Below are positions 2 to 28,640 of a stretch of 32,000 nucleotides of DNA, piece after piece (the stretch's first letter is position 1; every line of letters begins with the position of its first letter). The notes under the pieces were generated by a model, which was not told the DNA's origin, did not search any database, and saw only the letters and a list, made by a program, of their open reading frames with translations. The DNA comes from Argonema antarcticum A004/B2 (GTDB taxonomy: Bacteria; Cyanobacteriota; Cyanobacteriia; Cyanobacteriales; Aerosakkonemataceae): positions 685 through 32,684 of the forward strand of contig NZ_JAIQZN010000080.1 in NCBI RefSeq assembly GCF_023333585.1. The letters are read 5' to 3'. The translations under genes and the position numbers were made by a program.

Positions 2-1933
2 GAGTTATTATCACCACAGAACAAAATTTCTTTTGGATTTGGGGAAGCAGGTCAAGGTAACAAAGCGATTCAACTAGCGTTGTTTAAAATTGGAGTGGGA
101 TTTCTGATAATACGTACACAGCCAAAAAGTAATGATTTAAAAGATTGGCTGAATTTTCTGCACTATTTTCGTTTCTTAAAGGGACAGCAAGGAACTGGAG
201 TAGCAGCAAAACGAAAAACTGGATTAAACCCAGAGACTCAACAACCTGAATTTAGTCAGTTTTTTCCAGAACCAGCGGGGGGTGTTAGCCAATATAAAAA
301 TAGCGATCGCTGTTTATTTAATGAATTGATAATTGCTTTCCTGAAAACGGGAATCAGTGAAAAAAATCCCAAACAGTGGTGGCGAGAAGTATTTGTACCG
401 GGACAAATGCTGCCATTTTTCAGCCTCTTTATTAAGGAATTGCCAACAGAAAGTACCCCTTATTTACTTTACAAGTTACATAACTTTTTCCATACAGGTC
501 AAGGCAACCATCCTTGTTCCGAAGATTTGCAACCAGACAACCCAGCATTATTACCGTATATTACACAGCAATGGTTTGTCTTTGCCCTGGAAGGGGGTGG
601 TTTTCTGGCGGTTGATGCACCGCAGACTGACTTTTTTAAGCAAACTCTTCCCGCTCACTTGCGCGACCAATATTTTCTATTATTTTTGTTAGCGCTTCAT
701 CAGAAATTTGCCTTAATTAGACTATCAGAAATGGTGGCTGCTAATTGGAGAATTAGCGATGATGTGGAAACGGACGTACAGCATAATACGGAAGTATTTA
801 CTAACATTCGCAACCAATTGTTACTGTTTACAGCACGAGGTTATTTTACCCAAGTTATGCAGCGGGAACATCATCATCGCTGCTATCGCAAATGGCAAGA
901 AGTATTTCAATTAGAACGGCTGTATCGGGAACTGAACGACCAAGTGCGGGAGATGCACGAATACTCATTGATGCAGCTACTTCGACGACAGGATGAAGCG
1001 GCTAAAGAAAGCGATCGTCAGCGTCAAGAGGATATACGGCGACAAGATGAAGCGGCTAAAGAACGAGAACGTTTGTACTTGCAAGAACTACGAGCTAAGG
1101 ATGAGGCTGCCCAAAAGCGCGATCGCCAATTGCAAAATACAGTATACATTGTCACTGCGGGGTTAGGCGCTGGTGCGATCGTTGCTTCTAGTGCAGGCTT
1201 AATTACGCAAGGTAGCAGCGATGGTCAAGTAACAATCAAATTGCCGTTTACTTCTAGTGTACTGCATCCTTTTAGTGTTGCTGTCGCTTTGAGCTTAATT
1301 TCTGCATTAGGATTTGGAGGAGCAGTTTGGGGAGCAAGGAAACTGATTGCGTGGTATCGTAACAAAGTAGCCCAAGATAATCTGTTAAATTTTATCAAGC
1401 TCTTATCGGAGCGCTCAGGTTGGTTTTCCATTCAAGACCGAGAGAATTTGGGTAAGTTGATTGCTTCTCAACCAAATGATGCTGTGGAAATATGGGAAGC
1501 ACTGTTTAATTGGTGTCAAGATAATAGCCATAATTATCCTATCCTAGACGAATTAGGGAGATTGCCAAAAAGCCTAGCTAAAAATAATTTTTCTCAAACA
1601 GATAAGAATCATAAAAAAATGTTGCTAGACGCGATCGCTCCTCCGAATCTGGCTCACAAGAAGATAGAATCATTTATTAGGTTATTAACGACTCGGCAGG
1701 AGTTGTTTTCCGATGCCGAGCAGGAAAGCTTACGTCGAGAAGCCCCTCATTGGCCAGAAGACGTAGAACAGCTTGCAAATGCGATCGGCTTTTGGTGTAA
1801 AGTTGAGGGTCGTTCTCAAATTTATGCAGAGCTATTGCAATTGCAAAACAGCCTGCCCAGCAATCACCTGCTTTCAAATCAAGGTAAAACTAAAGATATG
1901 TTACTTAATTTACTAAATATGAAAGGAAAATAA
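2..1933 (+). CDS. Uncharacterised two-TM membrane protein with coiled-coil stalk; first gene of the type III operon and possibly 5'-truncated by the window edge
   Basis: The track ORF 80..1933 starts at a TTG, but the same frame has no stop back to nt 2, so the true start may lie upstream of the window. Three in-phase 54-bp (18-aa) tandem units, RRQDEAAKE-like, span 983-1144. They run into two hydrophobic helices (VYIVTAGLGAGAIVASSAGLI; FSVAVALSLISALGFGGAVWGA) followed by the basic stretch RKLIAWYRNK. Two copies of a ~60-aa module follow (FIKLLSERSGWFS..FNWC and FIRLLTTRQELFS..GFWC). The stop at 1931-1933 is 1 nt from the next ATG. No family was recognised by eye. Confidence 0.6.
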   Translation, partial: ELLSPQNKISFGFGEAGQGNKAIQLALFKIGVGFLIIRTQPKSNDLKDWLNFLHYFRFLKGQQGTGVAAKRKTGLNPETQQPEFSQFFPEPAGGVSQYKNSDRCLFNELIIAFLKTGISEKNPKQWWREVFVPGQMLPFFSLFIKELPTESTPYLLYKLHNFFHTGQGNHPCSEDLQPDNPALLPYITQQWFVFALEGGGFLAVDAPQTDFFKQTLPAHLRDQYFLLFLLALHQKFALIRLSEMVAANWRISDDVETDVQHNTEVFTNIRNQLLLFTARGYFTQVMQREHHHRCYRKWQEVFQLERLYRELNDQVREMHEYSLMQLLRRQDEAAKESDRQRQEDIRRQDEAAKERERLYLQELRAKDEAAQKRDRQLQNTVYIVTAGLGAGAIVASSAGLITQGSSDGQVTIKLPFTSSVLHPFSVAVALSLISALGFGGAVWGARKLIAWYRNKVAQDNLLNFIKLLSERSGWFSIQDRENLGKLIASQPNDAVEIWEALFNWCQDNSHNYPILDELGRLPKSLAKNNFSQTDKNHKKMLLDAIAPPNLAHKKIESFIRLLTTRQELFSDAEQESLRREAPHWPEDVEQLANAIGFWCKVEGRSQIYAELLQLQNSLPSNHLLSNQGKTKDMLLNLLNMKGK

Positions 1934-1934
1934 A

Positions 1935-3398
1935 ATGACTAATTTAATCGTGCAAGTTCTCGGTAATAGCGATGTTGAAGTTGATGGAGAAGATGGTTTA
2001 AAAAAGTTAGAACAACTCTATTCTCTAGAAGAGATCCAGGAACAGGCTCGGTGGAACGATCGAGATTTTATCGAACAACTAAACAGAGTTAGTTTTCCCT
2101 TAGTACAAAAGCTTTATGACAATTTATCTACTGATACGGATATTTTGTTTGCTTTTATCCTGACTGACCAAATTCGATGGACGCAAAATCATAATGGCAC
2201 GGCAGAATTGTGGAGCAGTGTCGTTACCTTAGATGGCATTTGGTGGAAAAATATTTTATTAGCGTGGTGTCGAAACAAAAATATAGGTTGTTATCCTATC
2301 CGGCTAAATGTTGAACCAAATGTACCTAATGGGGCGGCTGACTGGGAAGGAATGGCAGAAGCGATCGATCCTTTATTAGATAAATATATCGTATTTGAAA
2401 ATAACTCGATATATTTTACACCAGAAGAAGGAGACAAAATTCCCATAGAAAAAATTATCGTACAGCATAGCAGCGGTACACCTGCTTTAAGTGGTGCTTT
2501 ATATCTTTGGGGTATCGAACAAAAGCTAGCTGGTAAAAATATCGATTTTGTTTATATTTCCGAACAAGAAGCAGACTGTCCTATACATCCCGGTAAGCAT
2601 TGGCAGTGGCGGCTCAAAGTGCCTCAAATTCGCGAATTATTGGAAATTCAAGATTTTAGTGGCGCTTTAAAGTTATTAGATTCCCTTCATCCTAGATATC
2701 AAGAGTTAGTTGAGTCGCTCTCTTTTCTCGACCGATCGGTTTCTTTGAATTTAGAAGGGAGAAATCTAGAGGGAAAAGAAAGTATTATCGAACGGGTAAG
2801 TATTGCTTTGTGGAGTGAAAAAGCTTTTCGCGATCGCAGTCAGTGGATGCACTGGTATTTGAGAATGGCTGGTTCTTTTGAGTTAGCTTTATATTTGTTA
2901 TTGGAAAAGCAAGGAAATAACAATTATCAATGGGAAAATAAAAAATTGATTTTTAGGGGAGATAAAGACACAGGAGATATTGCTAAATCTGGGATTGCAA
3001 ATGTTGTAGCCAAACTCTTGACTACGGGTGAATTGATTTATTCATTTTACCATAAACCACCCACAACTTTTGACAGTCAGCCAATCAACGATTCAAATTG
3101 GGAGCAGTTTAACAGTTTTTATTTAAATAAATGGTTGCAAACCAAAAAAGAGTGTTATGGATTTAATTCTTTGAGAAATGAACTATTCCATAATTTAAGA
3201 GGTGACTTCATCGATAAACTATTGGATGAAAAAACCAAAAAAATTAATGGTAAAGTTGACCATAAAGAGCATCCATCTCAAGTAGCTGTTGATTGGTTGG
3301 AATATATCATAGGGCTAGCTGATTTAGCCGATGAAGTTAAAAATCGGTCTAATAAATATCGCGATCGCATCTCACAAATATTAACAATTTTGCAATGA
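1935..3398 (+). CDS. CARF-HEPN ancillary RNase (Csx1/Csm6-like)
   Basis: 487-aa ORF wedged between the membrane-protein gene and cas10, with an ATGA overlap at 3395-3398. The N-terminal half is Rossmann-like (LIVQVLGNSD; ILFAFILTDQ; IIVQHSSGTPALSGALYLWG, which resembles a CARF ligand loop). The C-terminal helical half carries the R-x4-H HEPN motif RNELFH (3174-3191). Assignment rests on motif and context only. Confidence 0.65.
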   Translation: MTNLIVQVLGNSDVEVDGEDGLKKLEQLYSLEEIQEQARWNDRDFIEQLNRVSFPLVQKLYDNLSTDTDILFAFILTDQIRWTQNHNGTAELWSSVVTLDGIWWKNILLAWCRNKNIGCYPIRLNVEPNVPNGAADWEGMAEAIDPLLDKYIVFENNSIYFTPEEGDKIPIEKIIVQHSSGTPALSGALYLWGIEQKLAGKNIDFVYISEQEADCPIHPGKHWQWRLKVPQIRELLEIQDFSGALKLLDSLHPRYQELVESLSFLDRSVSLNLEGRNLEGKESIIERVSIALWSEKAFRDRSQWMHWYLRMAGSFELALYLLLEKQGNNNYQWENKKLIFRGDKDTGDIAKSGIANVVAKLLTTGELIYSFYHKPPTTFDSQPINDSNWEQFNSFYLNKWLQTKKECYGFNSLRNELFHNLRGDFIDKLLDEKTKKINGKVDHKEHPSQVAVDWLEYIIGLADLADEVKNRSNKYRDRISQILTILQ

Positions 3399-5605
3399 AT
3401 ATACAAGACTGGTTATCCAAACAACAACAAATTTATCCCCAGCAACCGTTACCCGATGTAAGCCCTAATTTGTCTTGTCATCCAGTTAGCGGGGAATGGC
3501 AAGATTCGGCACATATAAAAAGTAAATTTTGGTGGGGTGGTGGCGCTTCGGAAGAGGCTTGTAACCAAATTGAGGGAGACAATTTTGACCATCTAAATCG
3601 AGTAGCGGTGCTATCATTTGGCCCAGTACAGACCTTTTTAGGTGGTGGACAAAGATTGAGAGATTGGGCGGTAGCTTCTTGGCTGTGTCACTATCTTTCA
3701 GCAGTTCTAATTTATCGCTGGGAAGAAGCAGGTGGTAAAGTTTTACTGCCTTTACATCAAAGTTCAAAATTAGTCAATTGGTTGAAAGGAAGTAATGCAG
3801 TTTCCGATCGATTTTGGCAGGCAGAATTACCAAACGTAATTACAGCATTATACCCCAATCGAGACAATTGGTTAGACCAAAGGAAAGAGGTTATTAAAAA
3901 CGAATGGAAACGTTTTCTAGAAGCTTTAGAAAAAGCTGCGATCGCTCAATATCCGCGCTTGCTTGATGGTCAAGGATGGCGCGTTATCCATTCTGATAAC
4001 CAATATCTTTGGTCAGTTTATACTGAAGAAACTGCCCTTAATATGGAAACTGTTAGCGAAGATATCGATAGTTTACATCAGCGAATTGAATCGCGAAAAA
4101 TTGGTCGAGAATGGTCGGGTACTTGGTGGGGAGGGCGTACCAGTCCCAGCGATGGTTGTCTGTCAATTTGGCATCCAGGTTTAAAATTAATTTATCAAGG
4201 TGGAATGTGGGGATTACCTGACAACCAGATCGACAGTTGGTGGGAAAGGGCTACTCAAGAAAGTAAATTACAAGGATTATTTTCTAGTACAGACCGTCTT
4301 AATAGTATCGAATTAGTTAAACGGTTAGCTTCTGTTCCCGAAATTATCGAACCAACTTTAAAAGATTTGTGGAAAAAAAATCCCCCCGAATGTCCTTGGG
4401 GTCGCTTTCCAGATCGAACTGCTGCTGCTGCTGCTTGGGTAACAACTTCTATCAAACCAGATCGATGGAATCAAGAAGTTGGAGTTTTGCATGAATACTA
4501 TCTTAACAAGAAACCAATCTATTTTTGGGGAATGCCCAAAGCAGACGAACAATCTCCTTCTTTTGCCCATCCGCGTGTATTGGAACGGCGAAATATTGAA
4601 GATGAAACGATGATTGAGGATTGGGAAAACAATGTACCGCAAGGTTGGGAAAGTACCATTGAATGGACGGTGGGATGGCGGGGTGATGGGGATAATATGG
4701 GTAAATGGTTATCAGGAGAACAATATGAAAAGCTAAGGTTGCTTTGGTCGCAATGGCATCCTAATTCTGCAATGATAACCCAACATAATTTAGGGATTAA
4801 TCCGGCGATCGATCCGGTTCAATGCAGGCAGATGGAATTACCCCATATCCTCGATCTATCGGTACTATTTGGATTGTGGAATGAACTGCTTTATCCTTTA
4901 ACAGAAGAAGTTCATCACGGGAAAGTCATTTTTGCTGGAGGTGATGATTTTCTGTTATTAGGGCCGTTAACTGAAGCGATTTCTCTTACCAGCGATTTGC
5001 ATTCGCTTTGGATGGGAGAAGCTTCGCCGTTAACACAACCTTTAGACCCGCCTGTAGATGGTTGGGTAGAGTACAATTCTCAAATTTACCCCATACCTGG
5101 AAAGAAGATGAATTTCAGTTTGGGGTTAGTAATTGCCCAGCGGAGGATTCCTCAGTCTTTGTGGCATCGAGGATTGAATCAGGCATATAAGGAAGCTAAA
5201 AATAAGGGGCGAAATCGAGTCTGTGTGAAAGTTTTGTTTAATAGCGGACAATCTTTAGATTGGATTTGTCCTTGGCCTTTGTGGAATTTGTTAATGCCTG
5301 TGGAACCGATCGCTACTAATCAAACTGAATTAAATCGCTGGGAAAAATTACTTTCTTACTTGGAAAGCAGTCGCTTGCGAGAGGTTTCTATTTTTACAGT
5401 ACGAGATTTGATTGAAACTCTGTGGGCTAGCGTGGGAATTCGTCTGACTTGGCAACAAGTTATGGATGTAGGACGCGCTGAATTTGAGGCAGAAATTAAA
5501 GATTGGCAGTGGTGGATTAATTGGATTAGTTTGAAAGCTTTTCTAGCAAGGCAAGCGCAACAACGGCAAAAGTGGGTGGAATTGATGACGGAGGGGAAAG
5601 CATGA
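3395..5605 (+). CDS. cas10: Cas10 (Cmr2) large subunit, HD domain absent, cyclase GGDD present
   Basis: 736 aa. The Palm-domain start VAVLSFGPVQTFLGGGQRLRDWAVASWLCHYLS lies about 70 aa from the N terminus. The cyclase motif is VIFAGGDDFLLLGP, with GGDD at 4937-4948. The gene is followed by cmr3-5-like genes. Confidence 0.9.
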   Translation: MNIQDWLSKQQQIYPQQPLPDVSPNLSCHPVSGEWQDSAHIKSKFWWGGGASEEACNQIEGDNFDHLNRVAVLSFGPVQTFLGGGQRLRDWAVASWLCHYLSAVLIYRWEEAGGKVLLPLHQSSKLVNWLKGSNAVSDRFWQAELPNVITALYPNRDNWLDQRKEVIKNEWKRFLEALEKAAIAQYPRLLDGQGWRVIHSDNQYLWSVYTEETALNMETVSEDIDSLHQRIESRKIGREWSGTWWGGRTSPSDGCLSIWHPGLKLIYQGGMWGLPDNQIDSWWERATQESKLQGLFSSTDRLNSIELVKRLASVPEIIEPTLKDLWKKNPPECPWGRFPDRTAAAAAWVTTSIKPDRWNQEVGVLHEYYLNKKPIYFWGMPKADEQSPSFAHPRVLERRNIEDETMIEDWENNVPQGWESTIEWTVGWRGDGDNMGKWLSGEQYEKLRLLWSQWHPNSAMITQHNLGINPAIDPVQCRQMELPHILDLSVLFGLWNELLYPLTEEVHHGKVIFAGGDDFLLLGPLTEAISLTSDLHSLWMGEASPLTQPLDPPVDGWVEYNSQIYPIPGKKMNFSLGLVIAQRRIPQSLWHRGLNQAYKEAKNKGRNRVCVKVLFNSGQSLDWICPWPLWNLLMPVEPIATNQTELNRWEKLLSYLESSRLREVSIFTVRDLIETLWASVGIRLTWQQVMDVGRAEFEAEIKDWQWWINWISLKAFLARQAQQRQKWVELMTEGKA

Positions 5606-6591
5606 GTAGATGGTATTCTATTACGCCAGCGGGAACGGTAGCGATCGGGAATCTGACTCCGGTCGGTCAAAATAGCGGACAAGTGGGCTGTCGTTGGCCA
5701 CCGAACGGTCATCATCTGGCAGCTTGTTTGAAATTACCATCAAATTGTCAAATTTGGGGGCCGTTTTGGTATAAGGGCGAAGGGAATATTTACGTTACAT
5801 TACCTCTGCCTGTTTATCGGTTGGAATCTAAAACAGAGGAACTACCCCAAGAAATTTTTCGCTTGCAATGGCGAGACGGACAATGGCAGAAACAATCGGA
5901 ACATCAAGAACAAGAAATTGAAATTATTGGCGGTAGATATTTAATTCGTGGCAATACTTTAAAGACATTTTGGCAGGCAGGAAAGTTGAAAAATCCGCAA
6001 CTGCAAAAATTTCCTTGGCAAACGCTTACTTTAAGTCACAATAGCCGGGAAGATTACCAAGTTAAAGATGAGGGAGGCTTTTTTGCGGAAATGACTACTT
6101 TAATGTCGCCTGGGTGGTCGATTTTGGTCAAGGTGATGGGAGATTGCAAGTTAGACGAGTGGGGTTTTTTGGGCGCAGGAGGTACGCCAGTTGCGATCGC
6201 GCCCGTAGAAATAAAGGAGGATTGGTTAACGGCAGATTGTCCCAACCCTACTGGTGCGGTTTTACTCACCGGGGCGTTGTGGCAACAGGGGTCATCCGGC
6301 ACACTCAGCAGCAAAGTATCTTGTCCCGTTCCACCATTGCCGATTAAAGCTTATGCTGCCGATACAGGCGTTCCCTGGCAATCTTGGAAAAAGGTCAAAC
6401 ACCGTGATGAAAAAGACAACCCCAATGCTGAAAAACGGGTAGAAGTTTTTACACCGGGAGAATGGATGACTCCCGCAGGCGCGGTGTATCTGTGGGAGGG
6501 AACTGCACCTTTGTTAAAATCCGAACCTTTGCCGGATGCTTACCATCGTCATGTTTTAGGTTACGGACATTTATGGTTATTTCAGGAGTGA
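5602..6591 (+). CDS. cmr3: Cmr3-like (Cas5-family) subunit
   Basis: The ATG at 5602 overlaps the cas10 stop (ATGA). The track's 5572 start is a GTG inside cas10. Size (~330 aa) and position fit Cmr3, and there are glycine-rich segments (FLGAGGTPVAIAP). No decisive motif was recognised. Confidence 0.55.
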   Translation: MSRWYSITPAGTVAIGNLTPVGQNSGQVGCRWPPNGHHLAACLKLPSNCQIWGPFWYKGEGNIYVTLPLPVYRLESKTEELPQEIFRLQWRDGQWQKQSEHQEQEIEIIGGRYLIRGNTLKTFWQAGKLKNPQLQKFPWQTLTLSHNSREDYQVKDEGGFFAEMTTLMSPGWSILVKVMGDCKLDEWGFLGAGGTPVAIAPVEIKEDWLTADCPNPTGAVLLTGALWQQGSSGTLSSKVSCPVPPLPIKAYAADTGVPWQSWKKVKHRDEKDNPNAEKRVEVFTPGEWMTPAGAVYLWEGTAPLLKSEPLPDAYHRHVLGYGHLWLFQE

Positions 6592-6596
6592 ATTAA

Positions 6597-7370
6597 ATGG
6601 CTATTGAATGGTTAATTTGTCGAGAACCTGTACATATTGGGGGTGCTGATAGTAGCAGTCGCGGTAATAATAATCCCATATTTCGATTGCCCGATCGCAG
6701 TCCGGCGATTCCTGGTAGTTCGTTGCGAGGGGCATTGCGAGAACACGCTAAAAGTGATGCTAACTATCAACCATTAGTAAAAAATTGGTTTGGTGGTGAG
6801 AATAATGATATTTCTCCGGGCAATATTTCTTTAGGTTGGGGTTGGCCTGTGTGGTGGCCTGTTCATGTGTTGGGATATGGTAATTGGTGGGTGAGTTGTC
6901 CCAGTTGGTTAAATCGATTTTGCCAATTATCTCAACGATCACCTTTGAACCTTGCTACAGATAAAGTTCATATTACGGAACCACAACTTCGTAATAAAAC
7001 GGTTTATTTGCGGTGGTTAAAGTTGACAAATGTACAGTATTATGCAAACGAATTGCCAGCGCCAGCGGAAGTACCAAAAGATAGGCGAATAGTGGTACCG
7101 GATACTAGCATTAATTTAATTGTGGATATGGGTTTGGTACGACAACCGCGAGTTAGTTTGAAAGATGAAGCGGATGAAAAAGGAAATTTAGTCAACAATT
7201 TATTTGCCGTTGAAGGTTTTCCACCAGGTTCGGTTTTTCTGCTCACTTGGACGACGCGGGAAAAAGTGGAAGAGTTAAACAAGTGGAATGATTTTTTAAT
7301 GGGAGAACATTATCTTGGGGGCTTGTGGAGTGTGGGTTATGGACGGGTGTTTATTTCTCATATTGTATAG
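6597..7370 (+). CDS. cmr4: Cmr4-like Cas7 backbone RAMP
   Basis: 257 aa. The RAMP signature is RGNNNPIFRLPDRSPAIPGSSLRGALREH. A Trp-rich segment (GWGWPVWWPVHVLGYGNWWVSCPSWLNRF) sits in the usual Cmr4 position, and the C terminus is glycine-rich (LGGLWSVGYGRV). Confidence 0.8.
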   Translation: MAIEWLICREPVHIGGADSSSRGNNNPIFRLPDRSPAIPGSSLRGALREHAKSDANYQPLVKNWFGGENNDISPGNISLGWGWPVWWPVHVLGYGNWWVSCPSWLNRFCQLSQRSPLNLATDKVHITEPQLRNKTVYLRWLKLTNVQYYANELPAPAEVPKDRRIVVPDTSINLIVDMGLVRQPRVSLKDEADEKGNLVNNLFAVEGFPPGSVFLLTWTTREKVEELNKWNDFLMGEHYLGGLWSVGYGRVFISHIV

Positions 7371-7383
7371 TTAGGAGTGGATT

Positions 7384-7821
7384 ATGAATCCCGTGAGTTC
7401 TTATGAGTTAGATAGAGAAGTTTTCCAACTGCTGAATCCTGGAGAAGGACAATTAGATAATTGGCAGGGGGCGGCAAGTGGCATTGCTGATTATGTAGCT
7501 AGTTGGGGTGTGGAACGCTTTTGGGCGATGTCGCGATCGCGAGTGTTATTAGGTGGCGAAATGCCCAATGCTGCAACGGGTTCCGATGAGGAAAAGCGTT
7601 ATTTTGCTTGGGGTGTAGCGCGGGTAGTTTTGTGCAAAATTGTCGGTACTGATTTGCGGATTGAAAAAACAATGACAACTGAAGCGTTTCAGAATCGCTT
7701 TCGAGAATTGGATTTTAATCAGCAGGTTTTGTTGACTGATTTGTTGATGGAAATTTCGGATACGATTCAGTTTTGGACAATGCGATTGAAGGATGCTAAG
7801 AAGTGTAATACGCAGGTTTGA
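7384..7821 (+). CDS. cmr5: Cmr5-like small subunit (Cas11)
   Basis: 145-aa ORF directly after cmr4 and the last gene of the operon. The call rests on size and position; no motif was seen. Confidence 0.5.
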   Translation: MNPVSSYELDREVFQLLNPGEGQLDNWQGAASGIADYVASWGVERFWAMSRSRVLLGGEMPNAATGSDEEKRYFAWGVARVVLCKIVGTDLRIEKTMTTEAFQNRFRELDFNQQVLLTDLLMEISDTIQFWTMRLKDAKKCNTQV

Positions 7822-7891: not shown

Positions 7892-7946
7892 ATAATGAAT
7901 ATTTTTACCTTCACCTATAGTCAGATATATCCTTTAACTGGACAGA

Positions 7947-8598
7947 GTTTTCACACCTTTTCCTTCTAATGAAGGTCGCTACTTTTTTATAATACCTTAT
8001 CCAACAATGGTTTTGTAAAGCTTCAACACCTTTACCTTCTAATGAAGGTCGCTACCTGATTCTATTACGGTGATTGCCAGCGCTACCACTTGTTTCAACA
8101 CCTTTACCTTCTAATGAAGGTCGCTACGTCTGGGATTTGTTACCGCCCAGCAAAGCGGCAATCAAATAGCGATGGTTTCAACACCTTTACCTTCTAATGA
8201 AGGTCGCTACCGCCCTAAAAGCATTAGGGCTAGGGGAGCGCCTGATAGTGGTTTCAACACCTTTACCTTCTAATGAAGGTCGCTACGTGACCGGCGCGAC
8301 CGGTTTTGTCGGCTCGGCGGTGGCGCGGGTGGTTTCAACACCTTTACCTTCTAATGAAGGTCGCTACTCGATCGCTAGCCCCTTGCATTTAGAGCTAGAG
8401 CAGTTGCCTCAGCTTTGTTTCAACACCTTTACCTTCTAATGAAGGTCGCTACCACCACTACAGCAGCAGCAGCAAAAACGGGACAAGACAGTTTCAACAC
8501 CTTTACCTTCTAATGAAGGTCGCTACGCCATCATGAAGGTGGGGATTTCTGCAAGTTCGCGCGTTTCAACACCTTTACCTTCTAATGAAGGTCGCTAC
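7947..8598 (-). CRISPR. CRISPR array 1: 9 repeats of 36 bp, 8 spacers of 36-49 bp
   Basis: Repeats start at 7947, 8020, 8092, 8175, 8251, 8332, 8417, 8491 and 8563. The + strand consensus is GTTTCAACACCTTTACCTTCTAATGAAGGTCGCTAC. The transcribed (minus) form is GTAGCGACCTTCATTAGAAGGTAAAGGTGTTGAAAC, which ends in the type III-like tag GTTGAAAC. The two lowest-coordinate repeats are degenerate (3 mismatches and 1 mismatch), marking the trailer. The conserved leader lies on the high-coordinate side. Confidence 0.97.
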
Positions 8599-8805
8599 CT
8601 ACCCCTATTCAACCCCTTATCCTGCCTGATTTCCAGCGGCAGTTTGCGAGGGATACCAATTTTCTTACCACAAACCTCCTTACTTGCACATCTTTAAACG
8701 TCTAAAACCCTTGCCCAGTAAGGCAGCGAGGCTCACAACGAAGTTGCGTTGTTTCAGCGATTTTTCATCACCCTCGCAATTTTAGGGAATTGGGGATAGC
8801 TGGGA
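8599..8805 (-). promoter_or_regulatory. Leader of array 1
   Basis: It flanks the non-degenerate end of the array. Its blocks are collinear with the array 2 leader: AAACCCTTGCCCAG (8705-8718), GTTTCAGCGAT (8751-8761), and the inverted pair TTGCGAGGG (8644-8652) / CCCTCGCAA (8771-8779). Confidence 0.7.
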
Positions 8806-8849: not shown

Positions 8850-10364
8850 TCAACATTGCCATACAACCTGGAAACCTTTACTTGTCAGCGTCGCTTCCAC
8901 AGCTTGATCAAATACAGTAATCAAACAATAATTCTCATATTGTCGCACCGCATAACCAGATGGTCGAGTCTCAGAATTTCCACACCATTGGGGGCGATTT
9001 GTGGCTGTGGTACTGCAAACTTTATGCACGATATCTCGCCATTTATCTCCTTTTCCCTGCCAAATACTAATCAGAGAACCAGAAACTATTGCTGGCTTTG
9101 ACATCGCACGCCAACCATAATTTTCACCTAATTTTGCGATTAGTTCCCGCAAACGCTTAATTAACTCATTCAAAGGTTCTTCCAAATTAACTGGCGTAAC
9201 AGTAAATTCACTACCCCGAAAACCATAAAAACGTTCTAAAACGTGGGGTGGTCTGCGCCAACCTGGGCCAAGTCCACCAAGGCGACTAGCTAAAGCAAGC
9301 AATCCACCAATTAAAGGTTTAAATTCTTCATTGCAATCAACACTAATTATCCAAGTTGCGTGTGCTTGACGAGCCGGAATATTAGTATAATCATTGGAAG
9401 TTTGACCGAGCATTCTGGGAATAGATTGCAAATAGCTAGTTAAAGTTAATTTAGCCGGACAACCCAAACCTCCAAATATTTTATCAGTCAGTTTTAAGGC
9501 AGTTTCCTGCGAAAACAAAGATAATGCCAATCTGGTAAAGTAACCGCGTAAATTAGCCCGCAATACTTGAGGCGTCCAGCGGTATTGTCCGGTTTGATTT
9601 TCCCCTGGTTTGTGACTTTGGACGCAAGGTTTCATTCCGGTGAGTTGAATCTCCCAATTTCCTGAAGGAATAAAGGGCGCTAATCGACCAAAACCCGATG
9701 CTTTTCCCCGTCCGATTCCTTGGAATTGCAGCATTTCTTTTAAGCGTGTTTCCAGCCAAGTTTTTTGTTCTTTGCTAGAAGTATCTTTCAGTAAAACTTG
9801 CAAGCAGAATTTATCGAAATTCGGACTGGGAGGTTTAGGAGATACTTGCCATTGAATGCCTAAATTCTTACTTTTTTCGTCAAATAACTGCCATTTTTGT
9901 TGAGCGTTTAATGGATAAGGTTTGAGGTTTTTTAGTAGAATGGTTTCAAAGCGAATTTTGCGGGGTAGCCAGTGAGTGCGATCGCTTGCCAGCAAACTTT
10001 GCCAAAAAGCTTGTTCTTCACTCGGTAAATCATTCCATTTTCCCTGAATCCAACTTAGCAAAGCGCCCCTAATGCTAGAACCGGGAATGCAGGGAACACC
10101 GCCAATTTGGGCGGGTAAAATACCTCCTTCTGGAAAACTACCCCCACCAACTTGAATCGGACTAATAATTTGCAATTTGTCCAAACGTACCGTGTAAGCA
10201 TCAGCATTTTTGGGCGAATAACTTCCTTTTGTATCCCAAGCATCAATAATTATGGCAGAATCTTCTTTACCTTCAATAATATCCTCAGTTTTCGGTGTCC
10301 AGCCTCTTTCTTTTGTCTCTTCAACTGTGTACCATTGGGGCATTTCTTCAGGTAATAGCGCCAT
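8850..10364 (-). CDS. Two-RAMP-domain protein: Cmr6-like N-terminal half, Cmr1-like C-terminal half
   Basis: 504 aa. The first RAMP has GGVPCIPGSSIRGALLSW and the glycine loop QGIGRGKASGFGRL. The second RAMP has LRANLRGYFTRLAL, IFGGLGCPAKLTL and LGGLGPGWRRP. No separate cmr1 or cmr6 occurs elsewhere in the window. Confidence 0.6.
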   Translation of the reverse strand: MALLPEEMPQWYTVEETKERGWTPKTEDIIEGKEDSAIIIDAWDTKGSYSPKNADAYTVRLDKLQIISPIQVGGGSFPEGGILPAQIGGVPCIPGSSIRGALLSWIQGKWNDLPSEEQAFWQSLLASDRTHWLPRKIRFETILLKNLKPYPLNAQQKWQLFDEKSKNLGIQWQVSPKPPSPNFDKFCLQVLLKDTSSKEQKTWLETRLKEMLQFQGIGRGKASGFGRLAPFIPSGNWEIQLTGMKPCVQSHKPGENQTGQYRWTPQVLRANLRGYFTRLALSLFSQETALKLTDKIFGGLGCPAKLTLTSYLQSIPRMLGQTSNDYTNIPARQAHATWIISVDCNEEFKPLIGGLLALASRLGGLGPGWRRPPHVLERFYGFRGSEFTVTPVNLEEPLNELIKRLRELIAKLGENYGWRAMSKPAIVSGSLISIWQGKGDKWRDIVHKVCSTTATNRPQWCGNSETRPSGYAVRQYENYCLITVFDQAVEATLTSKGFQVVWQC

Positions 10365-10671: not shown

Positions 10672-10968
10672 TTAATCAAGCGGACAAAGTAACCTCCAAA
10701 GCGGTGTGGGAATGTCCTCAAAATGTTCTAGCAGAAAGTCCATAATTGCCAGATGGCGCAAATCGTTAGGATGGGGATTTCTGCCTAAATCTCCTTGTTT
10801 AAACCACCCGCGCACGGTAGACTCGGAACGAGAACAAATTAAAGCTATTTGTTCGTAAGTTACTGCCCATTTATTGTAAAATTGTCTGGGTGTCATCCCT
10901 AATTGGCAATGGCTGTACAATTGAATCAAAGTTAATTCTCGTTCCTGTAAAATTCGAGGTTTATTCAT
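10672..10968 (-). CDS. Small helix-turn-helix protein
   Basis: 98 aa with an HTH-like segment VTYEQIALICSRSESTVRGWF. It sits inside the cas block, downstream of a toxin-like ORF. Confidence 0.5.
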   Translation of the reverse strand: MNKPRILQERELTLIQLYSHCQLGMTPRQFYNKWAVTYEQIALICSRSESTVRGWFKQGDLGRNPHPNDLRHLAIMDFLLEHFEDIPTPLWRLLCPLD

Positions 10969-11121: not shown

Positions 11122-11391
11122 CTAATGACTATCAATAGCCATCACCCAAATGGTTTTACCCTCTTTGTATTTCCAGTAAAAACGCAAAGCCATCGAAGCA
11201 GAAGAACCCCAAATTTCGCCTTTTTTCTGTTTATATCGATGAGTCCTCAAACTTCTGTAATTTGGCCCTTCTGCTGCTAAAAGTTGGAAAGCTTTATGGT
11301 ATTGTTTTTGCGTTTTTACTGAAAATACCGCCAATTGCTTTTTTACTTTGGGAGTGACAATCACCTCAAATTGGATGGCTTGATAGTCCAT
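11122..11391 (-). CDS. RelE/HigB-like toxin-fold protein (putative)
   Basis: 89 aa. The C-terminal pattern SLRTHRYKQKKGEIWGSSASMALRFYWKYKEGKTIWVMAIDSH resembles the RelE/ParE/HigB consensus: L-x-x-H-x-L-K-G, W-S, R-(I/F)-x-(F/Y), and a terminal H. Confidence 0.4.
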   Translation of the reverse strand: MDYQAIQFEVIVTPKVKKQLAVFSVKTQKQYHKAFQLLAAEGPNYRSLRTHRYKQKKGEIWGSSASMALRFYWKYKEGKTIWVMAIDSH

Positions 11392-13244: not shown

Positions 13245-13250
13245 AATTGG

Positions 13251-14102
13251 GTTTCAACACCTTTTCTCTTCAGTAAGAGTCAATCGTGAGTACAAATGGT
13301 ACATGGACGATAGCCCTTGGGTAGAGGTTTCAACACCTTTTCTCTTCAGTAAGAGTCAATCCAGCATTTGCTGGTAACGACCCGTATGAAAAACTGATGG
13401 GTTTCAACACCTTTTCTCTTCAGTAAGAGTCAATCTCTTTTTAACAGACCAAAAAGTTGGTGGAGCTTTATAAAGTTTCAACACCTTTTCTCTTCAGTAA
13501 GAGTCAATCATGGAGACACTGTAATTTGCGCAGGTTCCGCGGACGAACAGTTTCAACACCTTTTCTCTTCAGTAAGAGTCAATCTTTGCAATGGTAATTT
13601 CTATGATTGCCAGTGGAACAGTTTCAACACCTTTTCTCTTCAGTAAGAGTCAATCAAGAGCTACCAGGGTGGGCGGTAACCGTCTGCCCTGAAAGTTTCA
13701 ACACCTTTTCTCTTCAGTAAGAGTCAATCCGGGAGCAAATCCAGGAGCGGCGGCAACAGCAAAACAATCGCGTTTCAACACCTTTTCTCTTCAGTAAGAG
13801 TCAATCCAGCAATAGGGTTGGTCGGCACTGGTGTCGCTTGGGGAATGTTTCAACACCTTTTCTCTTCAGTAAGAGTCAATCAATCTTGATAAAATTGAGA
13901 AAAAAGCAGAGGAAGCAAGTTTCAACACCTTTTCTCTTCAGTAAGAGTCAATCTTGTCTGGTTTTGATAGTCTTAGCTGGGCCCGCCGGCCTAGTTTCAA
14001 CACCTTTTCTCTTCAGTAAGAGTCAATCAGTGGCAAACCGACTCGACGCACGAGTCAGAAGCAGCTTGTTTCAACACCTTTTCTCTTCAGTAAGAGTCAA
14101 TC
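13251..14102 (-). CRISPR. CRISPR array 2: 12 repeats of 35 bp, 11 spacers of 36-42 bp
   Basis: Repeats start at 13251, 13327, 13401, 13475, 13550, 13621, 13695, 13772, 13847, 13919, 13994 and 14068, and all are identical. The + strand reads GTTTCAACACCTTTTCTCTTCAGTAAGAGTCAATC. The transcribed form is GATTGACTCTTACTGAAGAGAAAAGGTGTTGAAAC. Confidence 0.97.
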
Positions 14103-14340: not shown

Positions 14341-16338
14341 TCACAGAGTCCAAATCATCGGACGGTAAGTATCAACTTCCCCCATCAAACAAGCAACATA
14401 TTCCCGCACCTGCAACTCCAAACAGCGGCGAAAACTGACTTTGTATCCAGTATGCGGGTGCGTCAATTCCGACTGCAATTTTTCTTCCCAATGCTTCAAA
14501 AACTTTTTTAGCGCATGAGGTTGCAGAAACACGCCACCACGTTCATCTGGCAACGTAAAATCCTCCGATGTGAAAATTTTAGAATTAACCAAATAAGACA
14601 CCAAAGAATCTACCAACTGCGCCCGAAACTCTTCCATCAAATCCGAAACCAATGCCGGATGATTATCGCGAGGAACGTGCAAATTACCGAAATGAGTATG
14701 CAGTCCAATCAATTCGATAAAAGAGCAAACATTTTGACTCAGCAGCGTATATCCCAAACTCATCAAACTGTTAATTGGGTCGGTAGGAGGGCGCTTTGTT
14801 CGCTTTTCAAATGCAAAAGTTCCAGTAAACAGAGAACCCAATGCTTGAAAATACAAAGTGGCTGCTTTTCCTTCATATCCCCGTAACGCATCCATCGATT
14901 CAGCATCAGGTAATTTCTCCATCAATTCAGCAATTGATTCCAGGGATTGCAAGGCAATTTTGCTGGGACGACGACGATTTAATTTGAGCAATAAAGCGCG
15001 GGAATTATGTAATTTAGCCCAAACAATGGCTTCTGCTTGCCGTCGCGTGAATTCAGGATTTAGAGAACATTCAACCTGCCGTGCCAAGTATTCCACCTTC
15101 GCGTGTCCGTCCGTTTGCAAACGCCCGAAATAGCGGCCTTTCTGGGAAAGATACATGACCGGAATTCGCCGCCGCAAAGCACAAGATACCGCTCCGTGCG
15201 ATAAATTGCAACAACCGAATAAGACAATATGGCTGACCCGATTGGCTGGCACTTTAATCCGCAACTCCCGCTGATAGAAAACTTCAAATTGCTGGTTATG
15301 AATGCTCAAGTAAGCACCTTGGTCAGTTACGTACAAAGTAGTCATGGGTTCCTTCCAAAAATGTTCGGTATTGGCAATGGGAAAGTTAATAGGTTTGAGT
15401 AAGCTACAAGCTTTGGGAGGTTGGGAAAAAACGGGAGTTTTTCGAGCTTTTTGTTGATAAGGCATCCCGGAATCCCGGAGTGCGAGTCCTCCTAGTTGAG
15501 GAGGTGGCGGCGGAATTAATTCTCCTTTAGAAAAGCGATAACCTAGAAAAGTAAACTCTTCATCGGGAGTGAAAATATGGGTTTTTCCCGGTTGAAGCTT
15601 CAGATAGATATCGCCCAACCATTGGTTAATTTGTGACAAAGCGCGATTAGCTTGTATCCAATCGCCAGATGCAATGACAAAATCATCGCCATAGCGCACC
15701 AAATTAAATCCCTTACTCAAACAAAATCGATCGAATTCGGTGAGGTACAAGTTAGCTAAAGCACCGGAAAGAATGGCACCTTGCAATACTCCCTGACCGA
15801 AATTTCGGCGAACAGCACCAATTACGATGTCGGATTTTAGTTGCTGTTCGATTAATTGCAGTAAAATAGGTTCTAGCTGCAATTGCTCTAAGTCGGTTAG
15901 CAGTAACGCCCAGCAGAGGTTGTCGAAAAATTTCTCAATATCTGCCTTGACAATCCAAGTGGGTTGGAACTGATAATAGGAATACAGATGTTTGACTGCC
16001 ATCTGAATTCCCCGACCGGGACGGTAAGCGTAGCTGCAATCGAGAAATCGTTCTTCAAGGGGGAAGTAAAGTTCGTTCAGCAGCAGGCGAGAGACAATTC
16101 TATCCCGCACTGTCTGAATGCCAACCAACCGCTTACCACCACTCGATTTGGATAGATAAAATCCTTTGGCGGGACTAACCGTGTAGGTTTCGTTTTGCAG
16201 TCGATGGTGTAAAATTTGTAACTGCTGACGAGCAATTGGGGCAAATAAATCGGTGGTAATACCATCAATACCAGCACTTTTACTTCCCTTGCGAACTTGT
16301 TCCCAAGCAATCTGGAGAAGTTCTGGGGTTAATTCCAT
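14341..16338 (-). CDS. Reverse transcriptase-Cas1 fusion
   Basis: 665 aa. The N-terminal half has group II intron-like RT motifs: YAYRPGRG, KADIEKFFDNL, GVLQGAILSGALANLYL, the YxDD box RYGDDFVI (Tyr codon at 15693-15691), LKLQPGKTHI and FTFLGYRF. A proline linker PPPPPQ follows. The Cas1 domain starts at residue 332 (ATG at 15345). There is no N-terminal Cas6-like domain. Confidence 0.93.
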   Translation of the reverse strand: MELTPELLQIAWEQVRKGSKSAGIDGITTDLFAPIARQQLQILHHRLQNETYTVSPAKGFYLSKSSGGKRLVGIQTVRDRIVSRLLLNELYFPLEERFLDCSYAYRPGRGIQMAVKHLYSYYQFQPTWIVKADIEKFFDNLCWALLLTDLEQLQLEPILLQLIEQQLKSDIVIGAVRRNFGQGVLQGAILSGALANLYLTEFDRFCLSKGFNLVRYGDDFVIASGDWIQANRALSQINQWLGDIYLKLQPGKTHIFTPDEEFTFLGYRFSKGELIPPPPPQLGGLALRDSGMPYQQKARKTPVFSQPPKACSLLKPINFPIANTEHFWKEPMTTLYVTDQGAYLSIHNQQFEVFYQRELRIKVPANRVSHIVLFGCCNLSHGAVSCALRRRIPVMYLSQKGRYFGRLQTDGHAKVEYLARQVECSLNPEFTRRQAEAIVWAKLHNSRALLLKLNRRRPSKIALQSLESIAELMEKLPDAESMDALRGYEGKAATLYFQALGSLFTGTFAFEKRTKRPPTDPINSLMSLGYTLLSQNVCSFIELIGLHTHFGNLHVPRDNHPALVSDLMEEFRAQLVDSLVSYLVNSKIFTSEDFTLPDERGGVFLQPHALKKFLKHWEEKLQSELTHPHTGYKVSFRRCLELQVREYVACLMGEVDTYRPMIWTL

Positions 16339-16444: not shown

Positions 16445-16463
16445 ATAGAGTTTTGAAGAATTG

Positions 16464-19400
16464 ATGGCAAAGCGATCGCTGCAAGCATCAGAGTCAGGTA
16501 TCCAGCAAGTTAAACTTGCCTTGGAACGTCGTCAGTTGACTCAAAAAGCTTTTGGCGAAGAATTAGGCATTGCTTGGTCAACCATCAGCAAGTTTTTTAA
16601 CGGGAAACGGATTTATAGGACAATTTTTCTGGAAATTTGCCACAAACTGAGCTTAGATTGGCAAGAAATAGCAGGGGTAGAAATCGCAGGTGGTGATGAA
16701 ACCCCATCTCAGCTGCTAGGAGATGTCCGCCGCTACGCCGCTATTGCTAGAGATGCGCTTAATCCTCGCATTTTAGAAAGAATCGAGCGTAAAATTGTCG
16801 GTGAAAAATATATAACTGCGATTCAACGCGGTGTCAGCAACGTGCAACAAAGAGTTGTACCGATTATTGCACCTGCGGGATACGGGAAAAGTACAATTTT
16901 AGGAAATATATACGACGAACTGATTAAAGCAGAAGTAAGCTGGGTAGCACTTGTTTTGTGCAACTCTTTGAGTATCGAATCGACACCAACGGCGGAAAAG
17001 TTAGCGTTAGCTTTGGGTGAGACAGCTAGCGGTAAACAAATATCGATCGCGCAATTAGTTACCGATTTAACGGTTGAATGCGGTAGGGGTGTGCTGTTAA
17101 TCGATACTTTGGATTTAGTTTTAAATCGCCATTTGGCAACAGCTTTTACCACCGTACTCCGACAACTAATGGATGCAGGTGCAACGGTGGTTTTTACTTG
17201 TCGCGATCACGAATATAATGATTTTTTAGAACCCCCCCGCGAAAAGATGGCAGCGATTAGCGATACGATCGATCGCTATAACGTTCCTACATTCGATCGG
17301 GCCGAAATCAGAGAAGCTGCTGCGACATTTTTCCACAAGTCTCAAACTACTACGCCAGAAATAGGGTATACTTTTGCCGATCGCATTTTAAGTTTATCTG
17401 CCGATAACCGTCCGCTACAAGAAATCACTTGCAATCCCTTATTGTTAGCTTTACTTTGCGACTTGTTCGCCAAAGATGGTAATGTTCCAGCCGATTTAAC
17501 CGTTAGCAAACTCTATCAAAGATATTGGCACGAAAAAATTGCTTACAGTCGCATTGATGATAGTCATACTTCCCTGTTAGCGATCGAAAAAGAAAATTTT
17601 TGTCTCGCCTTCGCCAAATCCCTATTTCAAATGTCGGCTGAAAAACTTTGCGAATCAGCTTACCGAGACGAACTGGGAATTAATTTTACCGAAATAGTTG
17701 CTACGGCTTACGATAATTTATTAAGTGAAGGGGTAATCGAACGTTTACTTTCTACGAAAATCCACTTTTTTCACCAAACTTTATTAGAATATACCATAGC
17801 TTACTGGCTAACTAGACATAGCGCCAAAGAATATCGTTATCAACTATTGCAAATTAGTCAATCAGATGATAGTACTCGCACTTATTGGTTTCCAATTATC
17901 CGCCAGCTTTTGACGATCGTAGATGAATCGGACTTTGAAGAAATTGTTAATAAATTAGATATCAATCGAATAGCAGCCTTTCGCGCGATCGCTTTTGCTG
18001 CTACTTCTCGTAGTGAAGAACAACCACTTTTAAAGTTATTACCAACTGCGCTAGCGCGAGGTAGCGCTTATCAAAGAATATTGTATCGCGCTTTAGCTTC
18101 AGCTTCCGTACCTTTGCAAGAAACAGCATGGAATTGTTTATTGACTATTCTACGAGAAGGCGATCGGGCCACTGCTTCTAGCGCCGCCCAAACTATTGGT
18201 GCTATGCTAAATCCCTGGGGGACATCTCTAAGCGATCGTCTCGAACAAGCTATTAATGCTATATCCCAGCGTACTGCAAGTAATGATAACATTAATGAGC
18301 GATCGCAGCTTTATGGTTGGTTAGTTGATGCAGTTAACCCAATAATTACTGAAAATATTGATAACGAAGCATTAACTATCTTAGGCAAACATTATTTCAA
18401 GTTTTCGGAAGGAACTCGGACGACAGTTATTTGTTTTCACTTAATACCAGGAGTGACTCTGACCGCGCAAGTAGAATTATTCAATATGATCAAAACTGAG
18501 CCTTTACCCAAACGCACCGAGTTTAAATTCAAACAAGAGTTAGCTAAATTTTTAGCCGTTACCTTACCAACCCAAATCGAAAAATCTCCCTTACCGCCAA
18601 CAGATGCTTGGCTGGATAGCCTGCACCATCCCATTCAGTCTGGTTTCGATTTAATTCAAGCTAAAGCGATCGGTCAGTATGCTACTACTAATTCTAACTT
18701 ATTAACTGCTATTCTGCAAGACTTTATTACTGGAGATAAAAAAAATACAAATAATAACTTATTTGCTTTAATAGAAGCCATAAGTTATGGTGCTAGCCAT
18801 CAAATAGCATCGGCATTAATTAAAATTGACCATCTCCCTTCAGAGCGGGTTAAATCGGTAATTACACTTTTGAAAGAGATGAATAATACCCTCGATTTAA
18901 GTCAGCGTGAATCTTTGGCGAACTGGATAAAACCGATCGCGATTGAGCATCCCGAACAATGGTTGCCTACTCTGGCTGACTTAGCCTCAGATTCTTTAAA
19001 GGTACAACAGTTAGTTATAGAACTTTTCTCCACTTTACCTGAAGAAAAGCAAAGTTTAATCCTTAATAAAAACTTGCTAATATTGATTCCAGAGTTATGG
19101 CAAACCCTATCACATAAAGACGCTAATAGCCAAGTTAATTTAGTATTGGTTAAAGTTTATCGAGAAACTGCTCAAACCAATGATTCGGATATTAGCAAAT
19201 TAATTGAATTAGCAATCAAATCTGGCAAAAAGGCAGCAATCTCAGCGGCAGAAGCTATTTTTAGCTTATCTAAAGAGCGAAAGTTACCCAATTTTAAAGA
19301 CTTATGGGATTTAAGTAATTCTACCTTTCCAGGGGTTAGACTAAATTATTTATCAAGTATCAAAAGCCAGATAATCCAATGGAATGTAGCACTCCAAGAA

Positions 19401-28058: not shown

Positions 28059-28640
28059 ATGACAGTAACGCTAGACAAAACAAAAGACCAACGCCTAGTT
28101 CATTTTGGAATGAGTTGGCAACAGTTCAAGTTACTTCAGGAAAGCTTTGCCGACTCACGAGGAATCCGACTCGCTTATTACAAAGGAGAAATTGAAATTG
28201 TGACACTTTCCCCTGACCACGAATCAATCAGCCGCATGATTACAGGGTTGCTAATTGTGTATTTTTTGAACAAAAACATTGAATTCAACCCATTAGGCAG
28301 CTTTACCCAAGAAAAGGAAGAGGAAGTTTCAGCGCAAGCAGACGAATCATTTGCTATTGGTAGGTCAACCGCAACTAAACCTGACTTGGTTGTAGAAGTA
28401 ATCTTTACCAGTGGTAGCGATCGCAAATTGAAACGCTATAAAGTTTTAGGTGTTCCTGAAGTTTGGTTTTGGGAAGATGGTTTATTCAGGCTGTATCATT
28501 TGCGGGAATCAGGATACGAGCGGATAGAGCGTTCTGAAGTTTTGCCAGATTTGGATATCAACCTGTTAACTCGTTGTGTGATGATGGCTTCTAAACTTGA
28601 AGCTCTTAAAGTGTTTCAACAGGCAATTGCTCAAGCTTAA
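28059..28640 (+). CDS. Uma2 (DUF820) family restriction-endonuclease-like protein
   Basis: 193 aa with the family-typical layout: ..YYKGEIEIVTLSPDHE.., PDLVVEVIFTSGS, YKVLGVPEVWFWE. Confidence 0.8.
   Translation: MTVTLDKTKDQRLVHFGMSWQQFKLLQESFADSRGIRLAYYKGEIEIVTLSPDHESISRMITGLLIVYFLNKNIEFNPLGSFTQEKEEEVSAQADESFAIGRSTATKPDLVVEVIFTSGSDRKLKRYKVLGVPEVWFWEDGLFRLYHLRESGYERIERSEVLPDLDINLLTRCVMMASKLEALKVFQQAIAQA

Follow-up and report, generated by a model that had tools for sequence, protein, structure and literature searches.

A conserved cyanobacterial type III-B variant Cmr4 without the canonical slicer aspartate, and its candidate role in a non-slicing, signalling effector

The 32,000-nucleotide stretch of Argonema antarcticum A004/B2 considered here (contig NZ_JAIQZN010000080.1, positions 685 to 32,684 of the forward strand; hereafter the window) carries a CRISPR-Cas locus whose open reading frame (ORF) at 6597-7370 encodes a true Cmr4, kept by selection, from a cyanobacterial variant of type III-B; this Cmr4 has lost the canonical slicer Asp. 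Judged by its sequence, the complex built around this subunit would probably be a non-slicing RNA sensor that acts via Cas10 signalling and is shut off by other means. To our knowledge, target slicing by Cas7 subunits (Csm3/Cmr4) is regarded as universal in type III effectors and as the timer that turns Cas10 off. Loss of cleavage by mutation leads to hyperactivity in type III systems. The gene and the codons in question are the following:

6597..7370, plus strand: cmr4, 257 aa, Cas7-family backbone subunit of a type III-B variant effector (Pfam, NCBIfam, PADLOC, AlphaFold2, Foldseek)
6666..6674, plus strand: codons of N24-N25-N26 (AAT AAT AAT), with N25 at 6669-6671 in the catalytic-Asp column (alignments, orthologue census, codon turnover)

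The 257-aa product begins with MAIEWLICREPVHIGGADSSSRGNNNPIFRLPDRSPAIPGSSLRG..., its ATG at 6597 being preceded by AGGAG, and falls in the RAMP superfamily (Pfam, E 2e-23). Its top-scoring NCBIfam family is Cmr4 TIGR02580 (E 6e-14), with a score of 52.6 bits that lies below the 87-bit equivalog cutoff, and PADLOC assigns the ORF to Cmr4 as well (E 2e-21). A model predicted by AlphaFold2 (AF2) from 53 orthologues has a pLDDT (predicted local distance difference test) of 88 and a pTM (predicted template modelling score) of 0.85; when it is compared with the PDB by Foldseek, the first 26 matches are all Cmr4 chains (template modelling score, TM, 0.65-0.78), headed by 6s91_G (E 3e-17, TM 0.77), and further matches include the Cmr4 chains of A. 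fulgidus, P. furiosus and the DtCmr complex. The gene lies 3' of cas10, between cmr3 and cmr5, in an order kept across 38 related loci. The protein is a divergent Cmr4, not a TIGR02580 equivalog. It keeps the RAMP fold, PGSSLRG...R48, the thumb hairpin and the G-rich loop, i.e., what would be needed for polymerising on the CRISPR RNA (crRNA) and holding the target RNA.

A look-up of the exact sequence returned no match. The orthologue family to which the protein belongs numbers about 100 clusters (45-92% identity), and the 35 genome loci that contain it are nearly all from cyanobacteria (Microseira, Tolypothrix, Scytonema, Planktothrix, Laspinema, Limnoraphis, Lyngbya, Hyella and others). Compared with nine orthologues, the ratio of nonsynonymous to synonymous substitution rates (dN/dS) of cmr4 is 0.08-0.21, and the codons of N24-N26 swap AAT and AAC synonymously among orthologues. 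Such purifying selection implies that the loss of the Asp is a fixed trait rather than an error or a symptom of decay; a sequencing error or strain-specific mutation is ruled out, since 99 orthologues share the trait and its codons have turned over synonymously.

Residues 22-30 of the protein read R-G-N-N-N-P-I-F-R, followed by L-P-D33-R-S-P-A-I38-P-G-S-S-L-R-G45, and four kinds of comparison align N25 in the column of the invariant slicer Asp (D26 of P. furiosus Cmr4, D33 of S. thermophilus Csm3). In phmmer, G-N-N25-N-P comes to lie opposite A-I-D33-S-P of S. thermophilus Csm3 (AIDSPV) and G-T-D-N-P of M. jannaschii Csm3 (GTDNPV). In hmmsearch, a family profile of 53 sequences places G-N-(insertion)-N25-N-P opposite G-N-v-D-L-P of the DtCmr Cmr4 9arw (GNvDLPIQRE), and N26-P-I-F-R opposite Q27-P-I-Q-R of P. 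furiosus Cmr4, in an alignment that begins at Q27, right after D26, so that D26 corresponds to N25. When the family is set against 44 canonical Cmr4 representatives in hhalign (probability 99.87%, E 1e-31), N25 faces the invariant Asp; D18 falls in a gap, L31 pairs with the conserved Glu of 'RE', and the near-invariant Thr of 'HT' is matched by D33. A MAFFT alignment of 120 representatives again has N25 in the Asp column.

A preliminary description of this DNA had placed an Asn, encoded by the codon at 6669-6671 (AAT), at the slicer position, and all four of these methods bear it out. The segment it gave for 6660-6683 reads as described, although that interval encodes R22-F29 and thus starts, by a trivial offset, one codon upstream of G-N-N-N-P-I-F-R. 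It had also raised the possibility that the D of LPDRSP is the true catalytic residue; hhalign rejects this as an alignment artefact, with D33 on the Thr and N25 on the Asp. A survey of orthologues for Asp or Asn at the site agrees: among the 99, position 24 is always N, 25 is N/S/R/Q/T, 26 is N/S, 27 is P, 28 is I/V and 29 is F/Y, with no D or E at positions 24-29 in any of them, so that no shift of register can bring an acid into the Asp column. Of the three Asn, the one at position 25 varies most, as would be anticipated if it no longer served in catalysis, and Asp, a single transition away, is never observed there.

What the preliminary description had treated as a trait of a single gene is indeed present in the window gene but turns out to be clade-wide, and to extend to the Synechocystis III-Bv model system. 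When 1.84 billion representative proteins were searched with a profile, 657 Cmr4 relatives came back, from which 118 full-length top matches were aligned with the query and the Synechocystis Cmr4, for a total of 120. Asp occupies the slicer column in 100 of these, 96 of which also have D or E at the second site (P. furiosus D86). The Asp-less sequences fall into three groups: the window family (GN[N]NPIFR); a sister clade with GNLNLIFRD, to which the annotated Cmr4 of Gloeothece verrucosa PCC 7822 belongs; and a group with GNLxGIARE, with the Cmr4 encoded on Synechocystis PCC 6803 plasmid pSYSA among its members. Against the canonical profile the pSYSA protein has a gap in the Asp column (hhalign, probability 100%, E 1e-39), and the clade of the Synechocystis type keeps Asp and Arg at the positions equivalent to D86 and K279 of P. 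furiosus. In a neighbour-joining tree without bootstrap the three groups join, which suggests a single loss in the ancestor of a larger clade, the Cmr4 of Synechocystis PCC 6803 CRISPR3 (III-Bv) among its members. No statement of Asp loss in III-B or III-Bv was found in the literature searched; an earlier mention is possible, Behler et al. 2018 lying outside that search. Two otherwise canonical Cmr4 sequences, P0227 (SINLPLARE) and P0248 (AINAPTMRE), have Asn for the slicer Asp and keep the Asp at the second site; these D-to-N changes would be independent natural events outside the cyanobacterial clade.

The proposed signalling role is framed by the genes that precede cmr4:

3395..5605, plus strand: cas10/cmr2, 736 aa, HD-less, with GDGD at aa 430-433 (nt 4682-4693) and GGDD at aa 515-518 (nt 4937-4948) (Pfam, PADLOC)
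1935..3398, plus strand: csx1-like CARF-HEPN ancillary RNase, 487 aa, with the HEPN motif R414-N-E-L-F-H419 at nt 3174-3191 (PADLOC)
80..1933, plus strand: CorA-like type III accessory membrane protein, 617 aa, first gene of the operon (PADLOC CorA, E 1e-27)

Cas10 matches the 717-position PADLOC Cas10b model PDLC02053 over its full length (1179 bits). In Pfam it has Cmr2_N at 71-175 and palm2 and gives no HD match, with just 70 residues upstream of Cmr2_N, whereas the 979-aa Synechocystis Cas10 has about 150 further residues at its N terminus, 'LLHDP' among them, and its Cmr2_N begins only at residue 222; this comparison confirms the earlier suggestion that the window Cas10 is HD-less. GDGD and GGDD are kept in all related loci whose sequence covers the region, and the cyclase motifs of the window protein are intact, from which activity may be inferred. 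The Csx1-like protein is recognized by PADLOC as CARF1--CARF_HEPN (E 8e-16) and Csx1 (E 2e-13), while a sequence and profile search of the PDB gave no match; its gene lies upstream in 35 of the 38 related loci, and RNxL[YF]H is present in 32 of 33 aligned Csx1 orthologues. Homologues of the CorA-like protein occur in only about nine of the 38 loci. CorA is the sensor of the pathway that uses SAM-AMP (S-adenosylmethionine-AMP) in B. fragilis (PMC10600005, PMC12669027), and by analogy the CorA-like protein hints at signalling of the SAM-AMP type beside the CARF-HEPN route. A 54-nt tandem repeat at 983-1126 of this gene encodes a coiled-coil-like segment, 'RRQDEAAKE'.

These parts may be arranged in four steps. 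The crRNA-protein complex would bind a complementary transcript without the usual Mg-dependent cuts at 6-nt spacing; binding would switch on the cyclase/palm site of the HD-less Cas10, whose motifs are present; the nucleotide signal would then activate the CARF-HEPN Csx1, and in some loci, including the window, the CorA-like protein; and the response would be ended by CARF or other ring-nuclease activity, by host RNases or by dissociation of the target, since a Cmr4 unable to release its target by cutting would have to leave shut-off to something else. In a wider formulation, to which we would give about an even chance, the whole cyanobacterial III-B lineage, including Synechocystis PCC 6803 CRISPR3, would consist of natural 'dead-Cas7' effectors, and its HD-less branch would be a nuclease-free, RNA-triggered signal generator for Csx1 (and for CorA in some loci), with neither signal termination nor the avoidance of autoimmunity depending on slicing.

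The experimental record on the slicer Asp lends this reading its force and also marks where it may fail. In P. furiosus Cmr4, D26A abolishes target cleavage and D86A lowers it, whereas H15, E32, E151, E152, E227 and E228 are dispensable for cleavage (PMC4333402); the role of the slicer Asp is described as metal coordination. In S. islandicus, D27A in Cmr4-alpha results in lethal autoimmunity that depends on the CRISPR array (PMC9368842). The Csm3 of S. thermophilus has Asn at the slicer residue in the target-bound entries of the 6ifk series and Asp in 6ifn; the Asn is inferred to mark an engineered inactive form, and the label 'D33N' was not found in the literature searched. Several considerations weigh against a non-slicing sensor. 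The predicted lack of cleavage is drawn from one class of residue, and in B. fragilis Cmr4 the change D27A merely slows cleavage (PMC10600005), so that loss of the Asp need not equal zero activity. D18 (an insertion that is 99% D/E, in a disordered loop) and the invariant D33 are near N25 in the sequence, and the invariant N24 and near-invariant N26 could ligate metal by their carbonyl oxygens; the AF2 model has pLDDT below 50 in the loop 17-24, so its geometry is no guide. The interference reported for Synechocystis CRISPR3 (PMC6546367) could rest on its HD domain and thus offers no proof of an HD-less branch that only signals. The signal molecule itself might be either a cyclic oligoadenylate (cOA) or SAM-AMP.

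These acids are the substance of a different explanation, in which the active site has migrated and the complex slices at 6-nt intervals after all, using D18, D33 or the conserved Asn24/Asn26. The relevant positions, together with two that bear on the filament interface, are as follows:

6648..6650, plus strand: D18 (GAT), candidate relocated acid, an insertion relative to canonical Cmr4 (orthologue census, hhalign, AF2)
6693..6695, plus strand: D33 (GAT), invariant, aligned with the Thr of canonical 'RE-HT' and not with the catalytic Asp (census, hhalign)
6837..6839, plus strand: W81, invariant, in the column of P. furiosus D86 (hmmsearch, hhalign)
7338..7340, plus strand: Y248, invariant, in the column of P. 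furiosus K279, in the G-rich loop (hmmsearch, hhalign)

D18 and D33 lie 7-8 residues either side of N25, in or beside the flexible loop. D18 is an acid in all 99 orthologues (96 D, 3 E), and D33, R22, N24 and R30 are invariant; the insertion sits inside the very loop that bears the catalytic Asp in canonical Cmr4, a loop disordered both in apo Cmr4 (PMC4333402) and in the AF2 model. Acids are found in this loop in each of the Asp-less clades, as GEE(T)GN and (Q)EGN; metal coordination might be supplied by other ligands, and the B. fragilis D27A enzyme is not fully dead (PMC10600005). However, loop acids are also present in 47 of 100 canonical Cmr4 representatives and are thus not specific to compensation, their positions are unlike among the three Asp-less clades, position 25 itself is variable, and D33, though possible as a relocated acid, is aligned with the canonical Thr of 'HT', away from the active site. 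No precedent for a migrated Cmr4 site was found in the literature searched. A migrated site seems to us doubtful, with perhaps a modest chance of being right.

The second pair of positions belongs to another aspect of the protein. W81 and Y248 form an aromatic pair in place of the canonical Asp-Lys pair, and the strand around them is unusually Trp-rich (SLGWGWPVWWPVHVLGYGNWW). D86-K279 of P. furiosus, and D83-K251 of S. islandicus, are described as a salt bridge between adjacent Cmr4 subunits, and for this reason W81/Y248 may be read as a remodelled filament interface and not as the loss of a further catalytic residue. The idea that a second catalytic acid is missing at W81 was set aside, since D86 is described as pairing with K279, which is itself replaced, by Y248.

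The remainder of the locus comprises the other effector subunits, two arrays and two adaptation modules:

5572..6591, plus strand: cmr3, 339 aa (PADLOC Cmr3, E 2e-11; conserved in related loci)
7384..7821, plus strand: cmr5, 145 aa (PADLOC 'Cmr5gr11, new subfamily', E 1e-69)
7944..8605, minus strand: CRISPR array A, 9 repeats (repeat search)
8850..10364, minus strand: two-RAMP protein, 504 aa, homologue of the Synechocystis Cmr1-Cmr6 fusion (Pfam RAMPs; PADLOC Cmr6, E 4e-18; BLASTP)
13246..14102, minus strand: CRISPR array B, 12 repeats, with a related but distinct repeat (repeat search)
14341-16338: RT-Cas1 (reverse transcriptase-Cas1 fusion), without an N-terminal Cas6 domain

The homology of the two-RAMP protein to the pSYSA fusion is weak (BLASTP, about 430 aa, 23% identity, E 2e-7), and this Cmr1-Cmr6-like protein, too, has no Asp at the Cas7 catalytic-loop position. 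The reverse complements of the repeats in arrays A and B both end in GTTGAAAC, which makes it probable that crRNAs are read from the minus strand, where the 3' end of the repeat is ...GGTGTTGAAAC; similar arrays lie 3' of cmr5 in the related loci. One adaptation module is cas1-cas2 (cas2 and cas1 come after the two-RAMP gene and before array B), the other the RT-Cas1 fusion.

Among the scanned ORFs of at least 100 aa in the window none matched Cas6, though the genome outside the window may encode one. This absence bears on a further explanation, namely that Cmr4 is non-slicing and that the exposed transcript is destroyed, and the signal thereby ended, by the host RNases RNase E, RNase J and PNPase. 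In favour of such a route, the crRNA of Synechocystis III-Bv is matured by RNase E and RNase J (PMC12464536; PMC6546367), and the locus resembles III-Bv in its Cmr1-Cmr6-like fusion. On the other hand, the window Cmr4 is only 25% identical to the Synechocystis one, the segment of the target paired with crRNA would be shielded within the complex, and the route is purely inferential; we consider it improbable. That the locus is a decaying or domesticated remnant, its Asp and HD lost under relaxed selection and its immunity gone, is highly unlikely in view of the selection and synteny data: Cas10 is split in a few relatives (Microseira, Kamptonema PCC 6407) and the Synechocystis sp. B12 copy is fragmented, but cmr4 evolves at the low dN/dS given above, all six module genes are intact and, in most of the 38 related loci (which include the 35 genome loci), each is matched once over its full length, the Cas10 and Csx1 catalytic motifs are conserved, and the locus has arrays of 9 and 12 repeats along with two adaptation modules. 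The split calls themselves, namely Cas10 as two ORFs in Microseira and Kamptonema PCC 6407 (L003/L010 7120-9010; L005 7386-8908) and cmr4 in Synechocystis sp. B12 (L002 9001-9830), may be either frameshifts of decay or assembly errors.

Several other features of the neighbourhood may be recorded. The ORFs at 10672-10968 and 11122-11391 were considered as ring nucleases and received no assignment, neither being a Csx18 homologue nor having a significant family match. RT-Cas1 is adjoined by a 1157-aa helix-turn-helix (HTH) and STAND/AAA NTPase (16461-19934, plus strand), a layout also seen in both Kamptonema loci with a protein of 1197 aa and 36% identity (L005 16907-20500; L006 14506-18099), which suggests that the NTPase/RT-Cas1 association is conserved. 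Flanking the locus is a 2276-aa protein that has S8 peptidase and P-domain parts together with Calx-beta and beta-propeller repeats (20956-27786, plus strand); a giant Calx-beta protein also lies beside the sister-clade III-B locus of Gloeothece PCC 7822 (L044 12281-18735), possibly by coincidence. Further on come a Uma2-family putative endonuclease and an IS630-type transposase (28059-28640 and 28703-29649), the latter split over two overlapping frames, an HTH part and a DDE_3 part; Uma2 genes have been reported in Microcystis III-B cassettes (PMC11855584).

Returning to the non-slicing sensor, the consequences would be general ones. A conserved Cmr4 clade that naturally lacks the Asp and retains an intact cyclase and a CARF-HEPN RNase would make the slicing timer dispensable or replaceable in nature, and would mean that a different off-switch or a higher activation threshold awaits discovery. 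The loss runs counter to a stated generality on type III active sites. An established genetic system allows the question to be tested directly, as the Asp-less group also contains Synechocystis 6803 CRISPR3. There is also a practical parallel, in that RNA-detection assays try to engineer just such a non-cleaving, signal-amplifying type III complex.

A comparison with known systems may begin with canonical Cmr4 (P. furiosus, T. thermophilus, S. islandicus, A. fulgidus; TIGR02580), with which the window protein shares the fold (TM 0.70-0.78 in Foldseek), the slot in the cas10-cmr3-cmr4-cmr5 operon, H13, PGSS(L)(K/R)G, the thumb hairpin with an invariant Glu (E206) and the C-terminal loop rich in G. 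It differs in having Asn for P. furiosus D26, W81-Y248 for D86-K279, 'RLPDR' for 'RE-HT' and the one-residue insertion, D18, in the catalytic loop. A second comparison is with Synechocystis PCC 6803 CRISPR3 (III-Bv), which like the window is cyanobacterial, has a fused two-RAMP Cmr1-Cmr6-like subunit, no Cas6 in the locus and a repeat ending in ...GAAAC, and whose Cmr4, also without the slicer Asp, groups with that of the window in the neighbour-joining tree without bootstrap. The two also differ: identity is 25% for Cmr4 and 24% over 417 aa for Cas10; Synechocystis Cmr4 keeps the D86-equivalent Asp, with Arg at the K279 position, where the window has W81/Y248; its Cas10 is a 979-aa protein with an 'LLHDP' HD region (L001 4272-4940), as against 736 aa and no HD; and its accessory genes are csx18, a peptidase and csx3-AAA, as against the CARF-HEPN Csx1 and CorA-like protein. 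Given the low Cmr4 identity and the different Cas10 architecture, the window locus is treated as a related but probably distinct branch instead of a direct member of Synechocystis III-Bv, and the published plasmid interference by Synechocystis CRISPR3 may be HD-dependent.

Loss of the Cas7 catalytic aspartates is also encountered elsewhere, in a different setting. In III-G, III-H and type VII the cyclase is inactive, and type VII uses the Cas14 nuclease. The Cas7 catalytic aspartates of these systems are not conserved (Makarova et al. 2025, PMC12669027), a loss tied to DNA targeting via an active HD or to the Cas14 nuclease (PMC12669027). With its HD absent and its cyclase motifs intact, the window would follow the reverse logic. 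The engineered dead-Cas7 complexes (Csm3 D33N/A, Cmr4 D26A/D27A) are hit at the same residue but are laboratory mutants, whereas the Asp-less state of the window is natural, ancient and maintained by selection. The nearest functional parallels might be struck with the Cmr systems of V. metoecus (NucC) and B. fragilis (CorA, SAM-AMP), in which immunity is left to signal-activated effectors, as proposed for the window. The V. metoecus Cas10 is HD-less like that of the window, and the CorA association of the window matches B. fragilis; yet both of these systems keep an active Cmr4 Asp and cut the target, rapidly in B. fragilis and slowly in V. metoecus (PMC10600005), whereas the window Cmr4 is without that residue.

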